64,000 nt of DNA from Camelus dromedarius. Lineage: Eukaryota. A program made the position numbers and the translations under genes. Of this stretch, positions 37,985 through 54,104 are shown one piece after another (position 1 is the first letter of the stretch; every line of letters starts with the position of its first letter). The notes below the pieces were generated by a model. It made no database searches. It was given only the letters and a program-made list of their open reading frames with translations, and was not told where the DNA came from. The DNA lies in contig NC_087436.1 of assembly GCF_036321535.1 (NCBI RefSeq), forward strand, positions 40,178,001-40,242,000. Reading direction: 5' to 3'.

Positions 37985-38275
37985 ATAGACCAGTTATGTT
38001 TGCCCAAAATTTAGCCCTTTAAAAGAAACATTTTTTATGCTTACCAATTCTGTGTTTCAGAGATTTGGAGAGGGGATGAATGATGAGGATGACTGTTTCC
38101 TCCATGAAGTCTGGAGCCTCCCATAGGAAGAATCAAAGCCTGGAGTTGACTTGAATGCTGGGAGCTAGAATTATCTGGAAGCTTTTTCAGCTCCATTCTG
38201 GCTCCAGGAGTAGGATGACTTGAGTTTGCTGACATGAGCACATGCCCTTCTCCTGTGGCTTGGCTGGTGTTTTGC
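37985..38275 (-). mobile_element. MaLR (MLT1-type) LTR 3' half
   Basis: Reverse complement reads ccagataattctagctcccagcattcaagtc...ggctccagacttcatggag...ccaaatctctgaaacacagaattggtaagcataaaaaatg...ctaaattttggg...ataactgg. Confidence 0.7.
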
Positions 38276-41200
38276 TTTCTAAACAGCTGAAAAAAAAAAA
38301 AAAAAAGTTACAAACCGTGTTATCATAACACTTAGGCTGAATTTGCTTAAAAATTAATTTAACTCATTAATGAGCATACCAGCAGGATGATAACCTACAT
38401 CCCCAATAAGACATTTTCTAAAGTCTCCCTAGCTCAAGAAGTTAGAATCTAACTAAAGTTGAGATTCCGCGTTTTGATTAATATGAACTATAAACACTAT
38501 ATAACAAATGGTGGTTCTAAAGGATACATGCTCATTAGTAATATAATATTCTAAGATTTCCTTTTTGGCTGCATTATGAATTATGTAACAGCACAATTTT
38601 TCTGTGCAAAATTATCAGTAGAGATGCAAACAATTTAATTATAAATGGAAATTTGGAATGCAACCATTTTTCATTTATAGCTGCTAATCTATAGAGGTAA
38701 ATGGCTATCAGTCAAGAACACAGGTTTATACATATATCTTGATTACTTAGGTTTGAGGACTTTATTTTTCTTTTCACATAACCAACACCAGATTTCATAA
38801 TCAAAATAGGTAGATTCTTTTGTAGTTTCACTGATTTTGCCATATGAAAAAAAATTTTTTTCTGCTGTGATATTTTCATGTGATACTAAGTCTCTAATGT
38901 CTATATCAGTTGCTTATAATTTCTAATTTATTTAAAAATTTATTGTTTGTTTCAGCTGTGAAATTGTACAGTGTAAATTTGTAACTTTTTTGGAGTCAGT
39001 CAGAACCAAAATAGATTTACTGTCTAAGATCAATTTCTATTTGTAGAATTTAATGCTAATGGTAGTATTATATAAAGTAGCTTTTTAAGGATTGCATAGT
39101 TTTAATTAAATATTCTCTTTACTTTTCCAAAAATCTATGGATTTGTTTTTCTTCTCTTTCAGTTTTGAATATCAACATAGGTTAAAGGGATAAACTAAAC
39201 ACACTGAATTACAGTGTAACAATGTGGCAGAGTAAAAGCCATTCAGTGTTAGCATGTAATCTAGGATGAAGAATTCTGTATTCCAAAGAACCATTAGATC
39301 TACATTGCAGGTTCTTCATTGAAATGACTCAGTTGTTTTTCTAAACAGAAAGTTATGAGACTCTTCACTGCATACAATAACGAGGGAAAATCTATTTAGT
39401 GATGGGTAAGGCGTATGTTGTCAGTATCACATATATTTCTGGGGTACATGTCCACATTTCTTCTTTATCATGATTTACTAGGAAATAGACCATCTTAAAT
39501 ATAACTTCACTTTTAAAACTGTTAGACTGACAATTTTCATTTTAAAAATTTCCTTTCTGTCAAGACAACATTTAACCCAGAAAGCTGAGTTCTTTAAGCA
39601 AATAAAAATCACTAAGTGAACTTGGAAATGACCATATCATGTACATAAAATACTGTGTTTCTCCCCTCAAGGGATATTTCAGTGAGAAAATAAATTCTAT
39701 TATTAAGAACCCCAAACACAATTATCTATGGCTTGAGTTTTACAGAACAGAATATATCCATTGGAGGATAAAACCATCAATGTGTACAACTGTAAATTAT
39801 ATATAACATGTAATCTTCATACTTCTGACAACCAAGATGAGATGAAGTAATTTTAAGGCCATTCTCCTATCCTTTTTTGCTTAATTAATAAAGAGTAAGG
39901 TTGCTTATTATTTCTCTTCTAAAATAATAGCAGGATAGAATACTTTCCCAGAAAACTTCTGCATTTCGTAGATATTTTGGAATATGGATAAAGTAACTTT
40001 GAGGAAGGAAATGGCAATTCAAGAATTACATGGTGTAAAATATAGATAGCTTATTATGGTTACTTGTCATCTCAATATTTACAAAAACTATCTCAGTATA
40101 TTTTACATAGTATGTAAAAATCAATACAAAAGATAAACATTGTTAAAGGATTTATCCACAAATTTGAAACCTCATTTGGGTCGTCATCATCATGGTATCT
40201 GTTACGCTAAAAGCTTTCTTATCTGCATTATTATTTTACAGTATTTTACACCCTCAAATCTGCTCTTAAATGTTCTCTAGGCGATAATTCACTGTGTACA
40301 GCTGACTTCAAATACAGGATTTATTCCCTTGCATGAGTTACAAAAATAAAAGACAGACAAATACCTTTTTAGCCGAATTCCAGAACACAAGGCAGAAAAT
40401 AAAATATATCTACAATCCCTATAGTTTCTTGTAGATCTATGAAGATCTGTTTCAGAAGATTTATACATACAATGGGTCATAGAGGCCATTCATCTTTTTA
40501 TTTGACAGATGTAAAGAACATAGATAGCCTAGGGAAATATGATTTATTTTCAGTATCATATAGCTAAAGAAATTCTTGTTATTCCCAGGGGATGCTCTCT
40601 CCACTACACTGTTACTCCACCTCCCACTCAAGAGTTAAAACAGCAGCAGCCAGTGATCCCAAGTGCTTAGGTGTACACTCTATCTACGCTTCATTTTTTT
40701 ATAATAATGCATGATGTTTTGCACCACTTAATATATAATATTGATAACCATCTATAGTTATATTCGTAATTTATATACATAGTCAGAAGTTTAATAAGAG
40801 GCTATCAAATGAATACCTTACAATTTAATGATTCAAAGAATGCTTACATAATGTAAAGGTTTTCGTATACTGAAGACCATTACTGTATTAGCCTCTAATG
40901 TTATAAAGAAAATTTACTAGTCCAGAGATTTAAAGAGTAAATTGCATATACAGAACAAAAAAATGAATATTTGAAAAATTCATTCTCTAAAGTGTATAGT
41001 TTGTAACACTTCTTATTACCTTAGTTCATTCACTGTTTATTCTTTTAATAGCAAATATATAATGTACATTTTGAAATGGAAAGAACACAGGGTACAAAAT
41101 AATGAAATTCTTACAATTACATTTTATGATTATGATCTTTGTTTCAACTATAATTTAACATTTTAACTATATCCACCTCTTTTCATTTCTAAAAGATGTC

Positions 41201-41610
41201 CTTAATTTTTTATTACTAAAATTTACTAAAGTGTTTTTTCATTGCAATTTAAAATAGCTGGCTATAAATTTTAATATAATTTCTCAGTGACAAACTTGGA
41301 GTATATAAAAATTATCAAATTAGTTAGCTCACACATCACACCTTGCTTCCACTGAGGATACTCAGTATTCTCTTTGGTCTGTTTAGAAGATTTCCACAAT
41401 TTTTCTTTTATTGTATTTGAATCATTACTTCCTTTATTACTTTTATGTAGCTTCAGTAAATAATGCGTAAGAATTCTCCCTGGTGTTACAGTTTAGACAT
41501 TTGTTCTTCCTACATGGTGTCCCTGTTGGGAGTATGGAGACCTGACTTTTTAAAAGCATATGCATGATCTCATTATTTCTTCAACTACATTTTCAAAATG
41601 TATTCCTGTT

Positions 41611-41658
41611 CATTATACTGTAGCACCAAACCATCATTATACTGTAGCACCAAACCAT
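41611..41658. repeat. Perfect 24-bp tandem duplication
   Basis: cattatactgtagcaccaaaccat twice (41611-41634, 41635-41658). Confidence 0.97.
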
Positions 41659-41886
41659 CTATGAAGAATAGACTTTGGATAATCAAATTTTAAAAACCAT
41701 GGAATATAAGAAAAAAGAAATCCTGCAACATGGTCCTCTTGTAGCTTCTAAATATTAAAGCCAAACATCATTTAGTCATGCGTCCACACACATGGGCACA
41801 CATACATATGCACACATGTGTCTTATATTGAAAATGTTGTTGCTCTTTTTAACTGAAAAAAGATTCTCTTGCAATTAACATTCTGT

Positions 41887-42448: not shown

Positions 42449-45400
42449 CTTGTTTCACACTAGAGTTTTGGAAGGAAATCCATCAGTTTTATCCACTGTT
42501 TATCATGTCCACGCTAGCTTTTTGGTGTTTAGTCATTTTAAAATGAATCATCTCTTTTTAAGTTGTAAAACAGGGAAGTAATCACTATCATTATATTGGA
42601 AAAATCATGTGTATAATTTATTAATGTGGTTGGGTCCCTATTAAGAGAAATTTGATGAACAGGTTTCATTCCCATACTGTAAAATTCTTAAAACTTCGAT
42701 TACAAAGAGCATATAATTTACGGGTATTAAAAGAAAATATACTTTCCTGGAGCTGAACAGATTCAGGCTTAATTTAATGGAGAGGGAGAAATAAATACTT
42801 GGAGTGCAGCCTGTCATAGTACTTTTCACAGTTGAGGTATACCTTTATGATACTGAATCTTGCTAGGAATGCCAGTCACCAAGTGTATGATGGCTTGTAG
42901 AGAGCTTTATTATTCAGTGATATTAAGAAACATGGATGTTCTTATCAAAGTCCAGCAGTTTTGCAGAAATTGAATATACTATTAATCAAAAATGCTGAAT
43001 CATTGATTTCTTTCACATTCTTGCTAATCCATTATGTTCAGTCTTGGATCTCCTATCTTAATTTAGTCTGTGTATGATAAATTTAATGCTCCACTTGAAA
43101 ATATATGGAATTTTAATAGATGGTGTTTCACAATTGGTTGATTCACTAAGTGGTTTAAAAATGCACGTACACCAGAACACGAATGCTGGACAATATATAA
43201 AAGTGCTCAGCTTTATCACTGAGAAAATTCTACTTTTAAGATGGGAAAATCTGGCTCAGGGAAAAATTCAACTTCTTTAAAACTGTTTATGTTATACAAA
43301 AGAAATTATCCTCCAAAAGGAGAAAAGTCTCAAAGGTAAAAATGTGCATGCCTAGTACAAGGTATCTCAATGGAAATGGACAAGGGGAACTGGCTGGCAG
43401 CCATCTGAATGACCCTTAATGGTATGCAGTCAAAACAAGTATGCGTCAGATCAAGGGATTTGCATGTGTTATTTATTATATAGGGAATTATTTAATCACA
43501 TTATCTGGTAGTTATTCATTCCATATTTAATCACAGTGGACTTACACCACCCCAAAAGCTATTATATATGTTGGCTTATATTCTGGTCTCAAAAACCTCA
43601 CCATCTGGAGGGAGAAATGTTAAAGATTTGCACGAGCTACTAGGCATTTTTAGATTATGAGCACATAATTTATGGTGGGGATTCCCTCATTTTTCTTGCT
43701 AAGTAGCTTTTTAAGCAGATCAGACTAATTGTGTGAGGGGGTATAGGTATGAATAAAAATATTAAATATTCTTGATGTTTACCATAAAAGAACAAAATGA
43801 ATAATCGAACTCCAATAAAGGGGAATAAGAAATTCAAATGAGGTTTAAGAAATGGAAATATTATAGTAAAAACAAATTCAGAAAAGTTGGCCATCATTTT
43901 GGTAAGAAGAATTAAACTTCAAATGGGACAGAAATATTGTAACATTTTATTCCTTAAACTTACTAGTCAGGGAGAGATTTAATTATAATGTTGCCAACTC
44001 TCACTGTTCTCGTTAATGAGATCTCTGAATTTTCGATACAGAAAGACAAAGACAGGTCCTCATCCTGACTTTCACAGAGAAAATAAAATGGAAGATGAAG
44101 GTGCAAAGTTGATGTCTGTCTTTGGGACCTTACTCTCGTTGCATTTCCCACCACGTCCCTTGCATTCTCATCCTAGTCCTTGTTCCTGTGCTCCATCTTC
44201 TGTTTCCTGACGTTCCCACCTGGTTGGAAGGAGTCACCACAGAGTCCTCCACAACATCTGACCTACCAAGGTTTATTTATCCCCATAACACATTTTTTTC
44301 CTTCTAAAAATTATTCTATTCATTGCTTCAAGTTCAGGTCTGCTTTTTCTTTCAAATAATTTTTCTTCAACTGAGAAATAAAACCCACATGAACTCCTGA
44401 ATTCACAAGTACCTCTATGCATAAGTCATTCTTTGCCTCCCAAGTTTTGAACATAGCCTTTTGATGAAATTGTGTACCACGTTTGTAGTTTAGTATTAAG
44501 AAATGACCATAGATGATAGTTATATGTACTGTAGGAAGAGAAAAATGTGTAACAGTAGACCAATGGAGAACAATATATTGGTACAGAAAAAGTGACATGA
44601 CATATTTTAAATTCATCTATTTGACCACACCTTGATTTGGCTCAGTGATTAATAAACAAACAAAAAACGGGTTGTCTATAAGCTTAAAAAAGGATTATCA
44701 TCTATGAATCAATTGCATTCGTTACAGAAAAAATAATTACAAGTTACCAAATTCACAAAGTAATTTGATCAGAGTATTAATTGTTGACAATAAAGTTGTT
44801 ATCTACAAAAGAGATAAATTTTCAAATGATCAATTTCGATCTTTTATATGCTAAATGTTAATTTATAAAGTTTACTTTAAATATCATAAGAGTAAGGTAA
44901 AGCACACATTTGCTAATATATATTTTCAGATATATGTGTATATTTTCAGATATATATATATAAAAGACAATTGAATAGAAACCTGGAAAATAGAATAGAG
45001 GGTAAAAATTTATATGAGATGACTATGAAGCCTTTTTATAATCTGTAATGTCTAGTATTGCAAACTCCCTTTCAAGCAGTTTTCTGTGCACTCGAGTACA
45101 CACATCAAATATTAGTGAAAATTTTTTATAGATTAAAAAATCTAAATTTAGTTAGCTTAATGCCAACTAACTAGTTCAACTGAATTTTCTACTTAGTTCC
45201 CTTGTTTTGACATTCTAGTAAACATTTGCTTTTAATTCTATTACTGTGAAGAAGAAAATGGGGGATGAAGAAAAAATGATTCACATCCATTATATTTTCA
45301 AAAAATACTTTAAAAAATTTTTTTATAGCTTCAGAAGCTCTTCTTGACTTTTAATAACATCACTTTTCTTGCTCATTTTTGATATTTCATGCATTTTTTT

Positions 45401-49639: not shown

Positions 49640-49739
49640 CCACAGAGCGTCTGCACAATGCCATGTATATAAATTAAATGCTGTGGTAACAAAAAGATGG
49701 TGGAGAGAAATATGCAAATAAGTGATTTGATGATCATGC
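49640..49739 (-). CDS. Candidate coding exon 2 (phase 1-2, 100 nt), signal-peptide or signal-anchor-like
   Basis: Acceptor ttttcatttcag, donor TGG|gtaaga; in frame with exon 1 it gives MAG-MIIKSLICIFLSTIFLLPQHLIYIHGIVQTLCG. Confidence 0.5.
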
Positions 49740-50679
49740 CTGAAATGAAAACGATTCTGTAAAATAAATGTCAGCATGAGTGTTGATTTTGCAGACTTCT
49801 GAAGTACTTTATCTGTTTTACCAAAACTCTCATTTAAAAATTTTTATGTGATGTAAATGTTTTCTCATTATTGCTAAATTAGAAGATGATCTTAACAGAA
49901 CTGAAATTGTTCAATTTCCTTCAATTTAGTTCATTACCTTTATATGGAGACACTGTCACTCTCCCTGTTGCACACAGTTGCTTATCAATCTGTAAAGTCA
50001 TTTAAACAACCTACTTACTGACTTGATGTATCAACACTTTGAATAACATTATTTTGGATGCACACCATATTATGTCAGGGACCCCAAGTATCAGTGAAGG
50101 AAGACGCATAAAGAAAAAATGTCATTTTGCAAGAAAAATTAAGTGGATTGGCAAAGAAAGACAAAAGTATGCAATTTATTTTAAAATACCTTTGATATTA
50201 TGTAGATTATGTATTTTTTTTCTAGATGACAAAAAAGTTTTGGTCAAAATGGTTTTTGAATCACTCGATTCTGAACTCTTATCTAAAATGTTCTTTATGG
50301 GGCTAGGAAAATGGCAATCGTTCACAATCTGTATTAAACAAATCTGTAAATGATCACATTTGTAAAAGAAATTCAGATAATCTTCCTAAAAAGAAATTCA
50401 GAAATTTCTATCTATAATGACAGTGTCAATGTTTCATTCTCAGTTCCTTTGAATTCCTAAAATACCTTTAGCTATTTCAGATATAAAATGGTCTATGGAT
50501 CTATAAATTCAAAAAAAAAAAATAAAGGAACATTATTTCAACTCTGGCAAGAAATTATTTTTTCTAAGGCCTAGTATTGTCAAATAGTAAAATCACTATT
50601 CTGCTGCTATTCTGATAATATGTCTGTTGACTGAATAAAATTCAGATTATCAATCAGTAGCCCAGTGCTAATCACTGCA

Positions 50680-52500
50680 TAGCCATTCTACTGGGTTGCT
50701 GGAGGTGGAGATCACTGTGCATTGAGGGGTAAGAGAGTCGTAAAGAAACCAAAGTTGATCAATTGTGGAATAAGTTTCGCTGTAACAGAAAACTGAGGCT
50801 ATGATTGTGAGGGTCAACGTAGGGATGAGAATATCCTAAGTACACGGATTGCTTATAAGGTGGAAGAAGTTAGTGGTGCTAGTTTAACCCATAAGATATT
50901 AAAATTTTCACTTCCATTATAGAGTTAGGAGGTGATAAACAAGAGGAAGAGCTCCAGGACATAGATTTTTTTCAGTTACTGAAAAAAGAATCAGAAAATT
51001 AGTGAGTGGGAATACAAATATATTTGTAGGCTTAATGGCAGGGAGTTGGATACTATTTTCTCTGTCAAGAGACTGAGTTTTCCTGCTGCTAGAGGAGAAT
51101 TTGTAGGGTTCAATGCCTAGAGAAATTGGGAAACTATTTAAATAGCTATTGTGAAGACTGTGAGTGAAATAGATGATTATCCTGCAAGATTGAAGGCACA
51201 ACTGAGGATGAATCCTCTGAATTCATACTGGCAAAAACCTTTAAAGTTTTATGACTTTAGATTGCCAAACAACATACGTTTAGAGTTTCCCATGACTAGA
51301 GATTTGCCAGGTGGGTTCAAAGGAAGGGCAACACTAAGTGAGAGTGAGGTTCTTGTTAAGAGTGTGCTTCAAATGATACACCACTTTACCTAGACTGGAA
51401 AGCTAAGACATACATAACCCAGAATTGTATGGACAGCAGCAACAAACAGAAACAAAAGAAACAAAAAACGTACAGGCGTCACAGATTGGAGTTCTCAAAG
51501 TTAAGGAAGAGATGTAGTAGGGGGAACTGAATGAGATAAAGTATGGAACTATGAGATGTTTGGACTTAACATTTCAAAAACCTAGGATGTTATTATTAAA
51601 AAGAACAGAAAGTAGACATAAGTTTGTTTTCTATGTCTGTGAGTCTGTTTCTGTTTTGTAAATAAGTTCATTTGTCTTTTTTTTTTTTACCCCCCTGATT
51701 CCATATAAGGGGGAAAGTGGGTGGTAAGGGATAAAATGGGAGTTCGAGATTTGCAGATACTACTATATAAAAAATAGATGAACAAGTTTATACTGTGTAG
51801 CATAGGGAACGATATTCAATATCTTATAGTAACCTATAATGAAAAAGAATATGAAAATGAATATATGTATGTATACGTATGACTGAATTAGTATGCTGTA
51901 CGCCAGATTGACACAACATTGTAAACTGACTATATTTAAAAAAAAAAATAAAAGAGCAGAAAATATCACTGGGAACAGACATTCAGGGAGAAACAGTGGA
52001 TGTAACTTTATCAAGTAACTGAGGCTGGGTGATGTTCAATATTCCAAGCAGATTTGAAATCAGCAAGGCTGATGGCAAATATGCAAGAGAGGAAAACATA
52101 AGCGAAGTTCCAAAATCAACACAACTTGAGTAAGTTTGCTTGAAAACAGAAGAGATGACCTTCCTTTCAACGGGGCCCAGCTATTTTACAGAGGGTGGAG
52201 AGGAGAGGTCTAGAGCAACATGACAGCTAGCAGGGCTCAGCCCCACCCTCCGGAGAGGGCAGCAGTGGAAAGAGCATAGGAGATCTCAGTCACAGCAGGG
52301 AGCTGAGAACAGTTAGGAGTGAGTTTCCAAGGTTTCAGAGCATGCAGTGAAATTATTTGGGTGTGTATGAGAGAGGATTTGGGTGACACAAAAGGAATTA
52401 TAGGCTGAAATAAGGATGGAAATGTGGAAGGTGATGACAAATTGAGATTCTAATGGAGCGATCAGAGTTCAGGCAGATAGAAATGGAGTTAGAGAACCAT
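50680..52500 (-). mobile_element. Highly decayed L2-like internal sequence (interrupted by the L1 at 51615-51950)
   Basis: Purine-rich plus strand; reverse complement near 52050-52076 gccatcagccttgctgatttcaaatc resembles the endonuclease ILGDFN motif. Confidence 0.4.
51615..51950 (+). mobile_element. Short LINE-1 3' insertion with 5' inversion
   Basis: Antisense 3'UTR block (about 51616-51706), then sense 3'UTR and poly(A); TSD aaagaacagaaagta (51600-51614) / aaagagcagaaaata (51951-51965). Confidence 0.9.
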
Positions 52501-52586
52501 CAACACCCAGCCTCAGTTACTTGATAAAGTTACAGCCACTGCTTCTCCCTAAATGTCTGTTCCCAATGATACTTGCTGATCTTTTA
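51949..52586. repeat. Inverted repeat, arms about 86 bp, spacer about 466 bp
   Basis: 51965-52034 matches the reverse complement of 52501-52570 at 65 of 70 positions; weaker match extends 16 bp outward. Confidence 0.95.
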
Positions 52587-52987
52587 AGGGACAGGATTGA
52601 GGATCAGGTCTCAGACATGTCCCTGCACCACTGACAACCTGAATTCTCTCCGAACTGTATCAAACCCAAGGATACCACCAGACATATTTGGAATAACATC
52701 CACCAGCTGCAACTTTATGGTCTCAAGGTCCTCCTTGTAACTATCATTTTGGATGCCAACCAATCCTAACTTAACAGAACCCTGACTTCTTGCTAGCTCC
52801 AATTGTAATTCTTGACAAACAACTTATGTAACTAACCATGGCCTTGAAGTTTTTGCCTTTATAAGCTTTCTCCATTTTGTAGTGCAGGGGAACACAATTC
52901 ACGCGCTCCTTGAATCTGTGTCTCCGGGCTCCAGTCCTAATAAACACCAAATAAATACTTCTTTGTTTCTGAAATTTTGGTTAACCA
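52583..52987 (+). mobile_element. Probable solo ERV LTR (about 400 bp)
   Basis: tataagc near 52860, aataaa near 52939 and 52950, end ttttggttaac; termini degenerate and no clear TSD. Confidence 0.55.
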
Positions 52988-53157
52988 AGGGGACATATAA
53001 CCAGAGACAACCCCATCACAGATAATCAATACAGATACCAGGAAAATAAAGTCTGATAGTTTAACTGGCCAGAACTTTTTTTTTTTTTTTAAAACAGTAT
53101 TTGTCAAGGCAGTACCCTAAATGGATTAGAGCCCAAGAGGATGTTTAAAGGACTCAC

Positions 53158-53164
53158 CAGCCAT
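53158..53164 (-). CDS. Candidate first coding exon end (ATG GCT G), 5'UTR extending to about 53268
   Basis: Reverse complement aaggtcATGGCTG|GTGAGT: G at -3 and +4 (strong Kozak context) and a consensus donor at 53157-53152. Confidence 0.5.
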
Positions 53165-53264
53165 GACCTTGATGGGCTGTGCCTTTGGTAGTGATGGAGA
53201 TTCCAGTCCACTTGGAAGGACAGTGGTCCGGGTTCGCGGCTTGTTCGAGGTGTGGGATGCAGCC

Positions 53265-53345
53265 CTCATTAGAGGTTCAGCGTTGACTGCTGCTTATATT
53301 CAGGCTCGCAGGATGAGGGCCCTTGTTTGTCCATATGACATTTCT
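53265..53345 (-). promoter_or_regulatory. Candidate TATA-type core promoter
   Basis: aTATAAGc (53298-53293); forkhead-like tgtttgt (53324-53330); E-box CATATG (53332-53337) inside the near-palindrome tgtccatatgaca; local CpG cluster 53229-53308 in otherwise CpG-poor DNA. Confidence 0.5.
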
Positions 53346-54104
53346 CCTTTATCTGCATACCTATTTCATTCTTTCCTCACTGTAAATTGACTAATTTCAG
53401 TGTGCCCAAAGCTTCTGTTCAGCCAAATTTTTATTTGTATGTAGTTAGTATGACTTTTTTGGCCTCTTTTCCTCGAACCTATATACACTTCAGTTCTCAC
53501 TGCTAATTGGCACCTTCTTCCCGCATTTCTTTGTTTCGAGACTGCTAGGCCTAGCTCCTTTTCCCCTTGCTAAGCTACAAAAGTATCCGGCAGTCCATGG
53601 TGACCCTTAGGTCAGATCTATTCAAGTGAATTGTGTACCAAGCATTGCTTTCTATCACAGCAAAGCCTGAAAGCAGGGAAGGTTTCATGGCAGACATTCA
53701 GATCAAAGGTAAGAGAATTCATGTTTTAAAATATATTGATCTTGTACCATATAAACTGAGAATTTACCTTTCTTTTTTCCTTGTACAAATACAAAAATAG
53801 TTCTAGGCCAAGAAGACACCAAGGCTTTCAAAAGCTTTAATTATACAGACCTTTTTCTGAGAACAATGTGGTAAATTGAGAAATAAAAAAATGCATTTTA
53901 TTGGGCTCCCAGTAGAGGTGGGTAAGGTAATTTGTTTTTCAGAAGTTGTCTGTCCACCTGATTATTTTGGTGGAGCATTAACCCAAATCCAAGGTTGACT
54001 AAAATTTGAAGTTCTCACATTATTGGGCAACAGAAAAGCCATATTCCAGATCTTTTTCAGAGAATACATTCTTAACATTACTTAAACCCTGAACTTGTTG
54101 GAAA

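Follow-up and report, generated by a model that had tools for sequence, protein, structure and literature searches.

A candidate first exon of a tissue-restricted spliced noncoding RNA in the NDST3-TRAM1L1 gene desert of Camelus dromedarius

The closest described counterparts of the locus considered here are the long intergenic noncoding RNAs (lincRNAs) of mammalian gene deserts, among which we take LINC01378 and similar human lincRNAs to lie in the TRAM1L1-NDST3 interval. The camel locus is like these in its intergenic placement between TRAM1L1 and NDST3, its short first exon, its repeat-derived candidate exons, its restricted expression and its possession of short open reading frames (ORFs) only, but differs from them in having an ATG in a strong context that is in frame with a hydrophobic exon. 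A second comparison is offered by the genes of small secreted proteins, which have a tiny first coding exon followed by a second exon specifying the signal peptide. The camel locus shares with them a TATA box, a short coding exon 1 and a hydrophobic exon 2, but unlike them presents no mature domain, homolog or long ORF that we could find. The third comparison comes from yeast, where T-rich non-genic DNA is prone to encode hydrophobic segments, according to Vakirlis et al. 2020 (PMC7005711). The candidate exon 2 of the camel locus is similarly hydrophobic and lacks homologs, with a T content of 38%; however, that study concerns yeast, and at the camel locus translation, a fitness effect and a noncoding ancestral state would all be putative. 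We favor, with a rough probability of 0.6, the reading that this is exon 1 of a spliced long noncoding RNA (lncRNA) with tissue-restricted expression, transcribed from the minus strand within the NDST3-TRAM1L1 desert, for which we infer the start site, strand, splicing and noncoding status from the evidence given below.

Genomic setting

The window, i.e., the whole 64,000-nt stretch of DNA analyzed, corresponds to C1:40178001-40242000, C1 being the contig NC_087436.1. The synuclein, kappa-casein, NDST and TRAM families place C1 as the human-4-like chromosome; its assignment as the counterpart of human 3q/21 was rejected, as the GAP43, cholinesterase and osteocrin families match other contigs. 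A family search located NDST-family exons on C1 at 39.60-39.67 Mb (minus strand) and 41.87-41.98 Mb (plus strand), and a TRAM-family single-exon ORF at 40.415 Mb on the plus strand, which is a letter-for-letter match to the recorded Camelus TRAM1L1 protein. On the human gene order, we take the first NDST locus to be NDST3 and the second to be NDST4, and these positions together with that order put our locus in the NDST3-TRAM1L1 gene desert. The preliminary description of the locus had allowed that it might belong to a known gene; neither flanking gene bears this out, for TRAM1L1 is on the opposite strand at a distance of 184 kb, and the first coding exon of NDST3 that we located, although on the same strand as the locus, is ~562 kb downstream.

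At TRAM1L1 itself (C1 ~40.4146 Mb), an upstream ATG is followed by a long C run and the long ORF begins at a later ATG, giving 327 aa. The camel records of this protein measure 327, 359 (“low quality”) or 360 aa, and these length differences are probably due to homopolymer error or a variant.

By eye, we recognized no coding exon in the ORF listing of the window and its 200-kb flank, and the ORFs of at least 85 residues in those 200 kb resemble L1 pieces or noise. Repeats make up at least 38% of the window by self-comparison, and an Rfam scan of the window returned 0 matches. The locus thus overlaps no coding gene, in keeping with a lincRNA. The human NDST3-TRAM1L1 interval is likewise described as intergenic in PMC4076321. 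Among the paper listings and abstracts searched for the locus or its kind, none dealt with this camel locus.

The strand shared with NDST3 raises the possibility that the locus is a far-upstream alternative NDST3 promoter with a 5' untranslated exon, in which case its ATG would be an upstream ORF. No coding gene was recognized in the 150 kb downstream that we examined, but the transcript would have to span the ~562 kb to the first coding exon, and the orientation of L1 elements and the strand skew both flip ~60 kb downstream of the locus, near C1:40.17 Mb, a pattern that gives no hint of a single continuous unit on the minus strand. We consider such a promoter highly improbable. The flip, just below window position 1, is an observation in its own right: across the 150 kb on the lower-coordinate side of the window, 18 L1 blocks are sense on the minus strand versus 3, and from the window start upward 10 are sense on the plus strand versus 2. 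Together with the accompanying T/A skew, it may indicate that transcription units converge here or that the direction of replication changes.

Promoter, first exon and RNA evidence

The preliminary description proposed that a spliced gene begins here on the minus strand, and all the motifs that it named are found where it placed them. The elements of the proposed start, in window coordinates, are as follows.

53293-53298, minus strand: TATA-like box with the non-consensus variant TATAAG and a putative promoter function
53158-53270, minus strand: probable first exon of ~110 nt, 56% GC and CpG-retaining, with a predicted start and words present in RNA runs
53267-53269, minus strand: upstream in-frame ATG in a weak context, at the predicted cap
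53164-53172, minus strand: NR5A/ESRR-type motif that shares bases with the Kozak context
53162-53164, minus strand: ATG in a strong context (G at -3, G at +4), 7 nt ahead of the donor
53152-53157, minus strand: splice donor GTGAGT, directly after 53158, leaving 7 coding nt and phase 1

The start site near 53270 is placed by the usual distance from a TATA box. The donor ranks 9th among the 3579 minus-strand GTs, this and the ranks given below (acceptors, n=3609) being computed with splice-site matrices. The upstream ATG at 53269, which the preliminary description lacks, would if used add 35 polar residues ahead of the second ATG. Under the reading that we favor, a TATA-type RNA polymerase II promoter would fire in camel reproductive tissue, testis being our guess, to give a first exon running from ~53270 to the donor at 53158, with the first intron beginning at 53157.

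The exon-1 region is single copy, matching itself alone, and a search of 53110-53900 against the genome, with E allowed up to 10, returned nothing besides the query itself, although a very old repeat could escape at this limit. An LTR-derived promoter was accordingly set aside, the promoter region having no other genomic copies at that limit. What distinguishes this region from its surroundings is its CpG content: there are 6 CpG per 150 nt at exon 1, a level reached by 0.12% of the window tiles, and the observed/expected ratio is 0.50 versus 0.15 across the window. In the 264 kb scanned, it is one of only three such spots outside the repeats detected by self-comparison. This retention would fit low germ-line methylation. 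The two other non-repeat spots, both downstream of the window (C1:40083851-40084050 and C1:40111451-40111700, with counts of 6 and as many as 11 CpG per 150 nt, respectively), may represent young repeats or additional promoters.

The run search used 53150-53300 as its query, sampled as 11 words against a word index, and listed 24 runs. Exon-1 words occur in 18 of these, the remaining six being raw-read and unindexed; these six, along with two runs at a share of 0.18, were given no weight as evidence. Ten runs from five studies hold a share of 0.55-0.64 (nine at 0.64 and one at 0.55, i.e., 6-7 of the 11 words). Four of the ten, from two studies, are recorded as RNA-Seq and labeled reproductive system, and six are guessed to be RNA. 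Six further runs of unstated kind, presumably DNA, have a share of 1.00. An exon spanning 53268-53158 holds 81 of the 121 possible words and hence predicts 7.4 of 11, against the 7 seen in nine runs, although a sister species differing at one or two positions of the sequence could also produce this share. The six guessed-RNA runs hold only 484-984 million letters each, versus a genome of 2.3 billion bases, so that plain genomic DNA would rarely cover one locus six times. As is typical of lincRNAs, the locus thus appears to be transcribed, as judged by the word index. The earlier idea of a tissue-restricted transcript start thereby gains independent support from reproductive-system RNA runs as regards the transcript, while the start site itself is a prediction.

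A different explanation is that there is no discrete spliced start at all: the RNA words would reflect enhancer-like or pervasive transcription or a piece of a longer minus-strand RNA, with the motifs arising by chance. Indeed, a TATA box followed by an ATG in good context and an equally strong donor occurs three times in the 64 kb (two on the minus strand including the locus and one on the plus strand), and the module is by itself not beyond chance. The T-over-A skew of the minus strand and the L1 bias also persist upstream of the proposed start (skew 0.033 upstream versus 0.061 downstream; L1 blocks upstream 3 versus 1 by orientation); as neither changes there, they do not mark it. Upstream of the TATA box lies a GATA-type motif (53354-53349), and the NR5A-type motif shows no enrichment across the window (2 occurrences versus 2.3 expected). 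The two motifs are only a lead toward gonadal factors, and they would suit an enhancer equally. Against this explanation stands the equal word share in nine runs from five studies, in agreement with the exon bounds, and inspection by eye found exon 1 to lack the preceding pyrimidine tract that an internal exon of a longer RNA would need. We consider it unlikely that the locus lacks a discrete spliced start.

Candidate downstream exons and coding potential

Returning to the spliced lncRNA that we favor, its first exon would be joined to downstream AT-rich or repeat-derived exons, of which two candidates stand out.

49640-49739, minus strand: candidate second exon of 100 nt, 38% T, single copy, with the acceptor ending at 49740 and the donor GTAAGA
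38045-38286, minus strand: old dispersed repeat with an acceptor and a donor; a possible later noncoding exon

The 100-nt segment 49739-49640 is the most likely next exon. Its splice sites are good without being outstanding (acceptor rank 49 of 3609, donor rank 62 of 3579), and a TAA directly follows the donor should the intron be kept. As the preliminary description held, it is open in phase 1, and its translation is exactly the peptide given there; a second open frame, absent from that account, is also present. The peptide has a Lys followed by a hydrophobic run of 13 residues, with a best 11-residue Kyte-Doolittle mean of 2.86. Three Ser/Thr lie within this run, and by eye a Gly could fit the -3/-1 rule of signal peptides. 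In the intervening first intron, an 86-nt inverted duplicate with 91% identity (51949-52034 and 52501-52586) flanks an LTR-like piece.

How far such a frame exceeds chance can be gauged in several ways. Eight candidate exons, four per strand, have sites as strong as those of exon 2, which is the sole one open in phase 1, though the thresholds are exon 2's own scores, a choice that favors it. When exon 2 was shuffled 20,000 times, 17% of the resulting sequences were open, of which 3% were equally hydrophobic; among 2527 natural open 30-codon frames nearby, 5.3% are as hydrophobic as exon 2. Openness and hydrophobicity combined give a chance of ~0.5-1% for one candidate exon, a signal that becomes mild once the many scanned windows and the after-the-fact criterion are considered.

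Beyond exon 2, the frame closes quickly. In all ten continuations tried (nine hand-picked downstream exon candidates and the read-through into the intron), it ends at 36-69 residues, leaving a mature part of 7-40 residues after the hydrophobic run. In seven of the nine spliced continuations, >55 nt of the appended sequence follow the stop, and the message would probably be open to nonsense-mediated decay. The longest, through 44528-44389, reaches 69 residues with its stop just 37 nt from the exon end. The same candidate exon (44389-44528, minus strand) also stays open in phase 1 when joined directly to exon 1, and it has no Pfam hit. From the 42 minus-strand rows of candidate exons, 23 were scanned against Pfam along with three further frames; none of these 26 frames exceeded the cut-off, and two gave faint hits far below it.

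The repeat at 38045-38286, presumably an MLT1-type LTR, has three other genomic copies at 72-82% identity. We rejected it as a coding exon: its 81-codon frame found no match among 36 candidates of 143-2000 aa, a search of little weight, and had no Pfam hit. The lack of such matches together with the three copies points to an old repeat. A long T run ahead of it makes a good acceptor, and 38003-38286 as a whole resembles a ready-made exon of a noncoding RNA. Elsewhere, a perfect 24-nt tandem duplication of 2.1 copies is found at 41610-41659.

Database comparisons yielded no relative of the peptide. When the 32 residues of the hydrophobic peptide were compared by phmmer with 1,835,955,588 representatives, two hits emerged, both dropped as tandem-repeat artifacts whose weak scores were summed without a matched stretch; the comparison that the preliminary description called for thus ends without a real match in 1.84 billion proteins. 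In simulations at this library size, recovery was 20/20 for exact copies, 19/20 at 85%, 7/20 at 70% and 2/20 at 60% identity. Named camel proteins such as TRAM1L1 are in the parent collection, so an annotated camelid protein containing exon 2 should appear, whereas at 7/20 recovery a diverged ortholog at 70% identity could go undetected. The Atlas search for the exon-2 peptide gave no usable match (recognition score 1303 versus a mark of 2300). The unspliced exon-1 ORF has no record in the protein collection. The exon-1 frame including the upstream ATG found nothing at E up to 10 among 33 candidates of 80-2000 aa, and the second exon-2 frame had no candidate among proteins of 71-2000 aa, both comparisons carrying slight weight. 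ORFs shorter than 70 codons are often passed over by annotation pipelines.

These results bear on the original proposal of a secreted or membrane protein gene, which in its most developed form would be a real, lineage-restricted small protein gene of the reproductive tract, with exons 1 and 2 specifying a signal peptide or anchor and a short mature part following. It has in its favor the strong-context ATG, the nearest strong candidate exon being both in frame and hydrophobic at the above chance level, the Lys, hydrophobic run and possible cleavage-site Gly, the RNA runs that hold exon 1, and the continuation whose stop falls near the exon end. Set against these are the missing protein record and usable Atlas match, the Ser/Thr residues within the hydrophobic run and the very short mature part. 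We regard this gene as quite unlikely, and the original proposal fares poorly: the peptide has no protein record, its frame is closed by 69 residues, no Pfam domain rises above the cut-off in the nearby candidate exons scanned, and neither a mature domain nor a homolog was found. The lack of a known relative and the early closure of the frame make a noncoding RNA likelier than a new secreted protein gene. In the lncRNA that we prefer, the ATG may still be read, as many lncRNA ATGs are, giving a hydrophobic peptide of 36-69 residues that bears no sign of selection and would probably be incidental.

Implications

The locus is most fittingly classed with the common lincRNAs, whether as a new one or simply as one without a name. 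As a lincRNA start, it would be one of thousands, with its value chiefly for camel annotation. A more consequential version, which we hold to be decidedly doubtful, is that noncoding DNA of the NDST3-TRAM1L1 desert has given rise to a gene restricted to camelids or ungulates, which would have a TATA promoter of its own, active in the reproductive tract, and specify a secreted or membrane micropeptide of 40-70 residues that is absent from current camel protein records. If the junction and its translation are real, the locus would be a compact, testable, young gene for a secreted or membrane micropeptide in camel reproduction and, if true, would illustrate in a mammal how genes can be born by the hydrophobic-first route.
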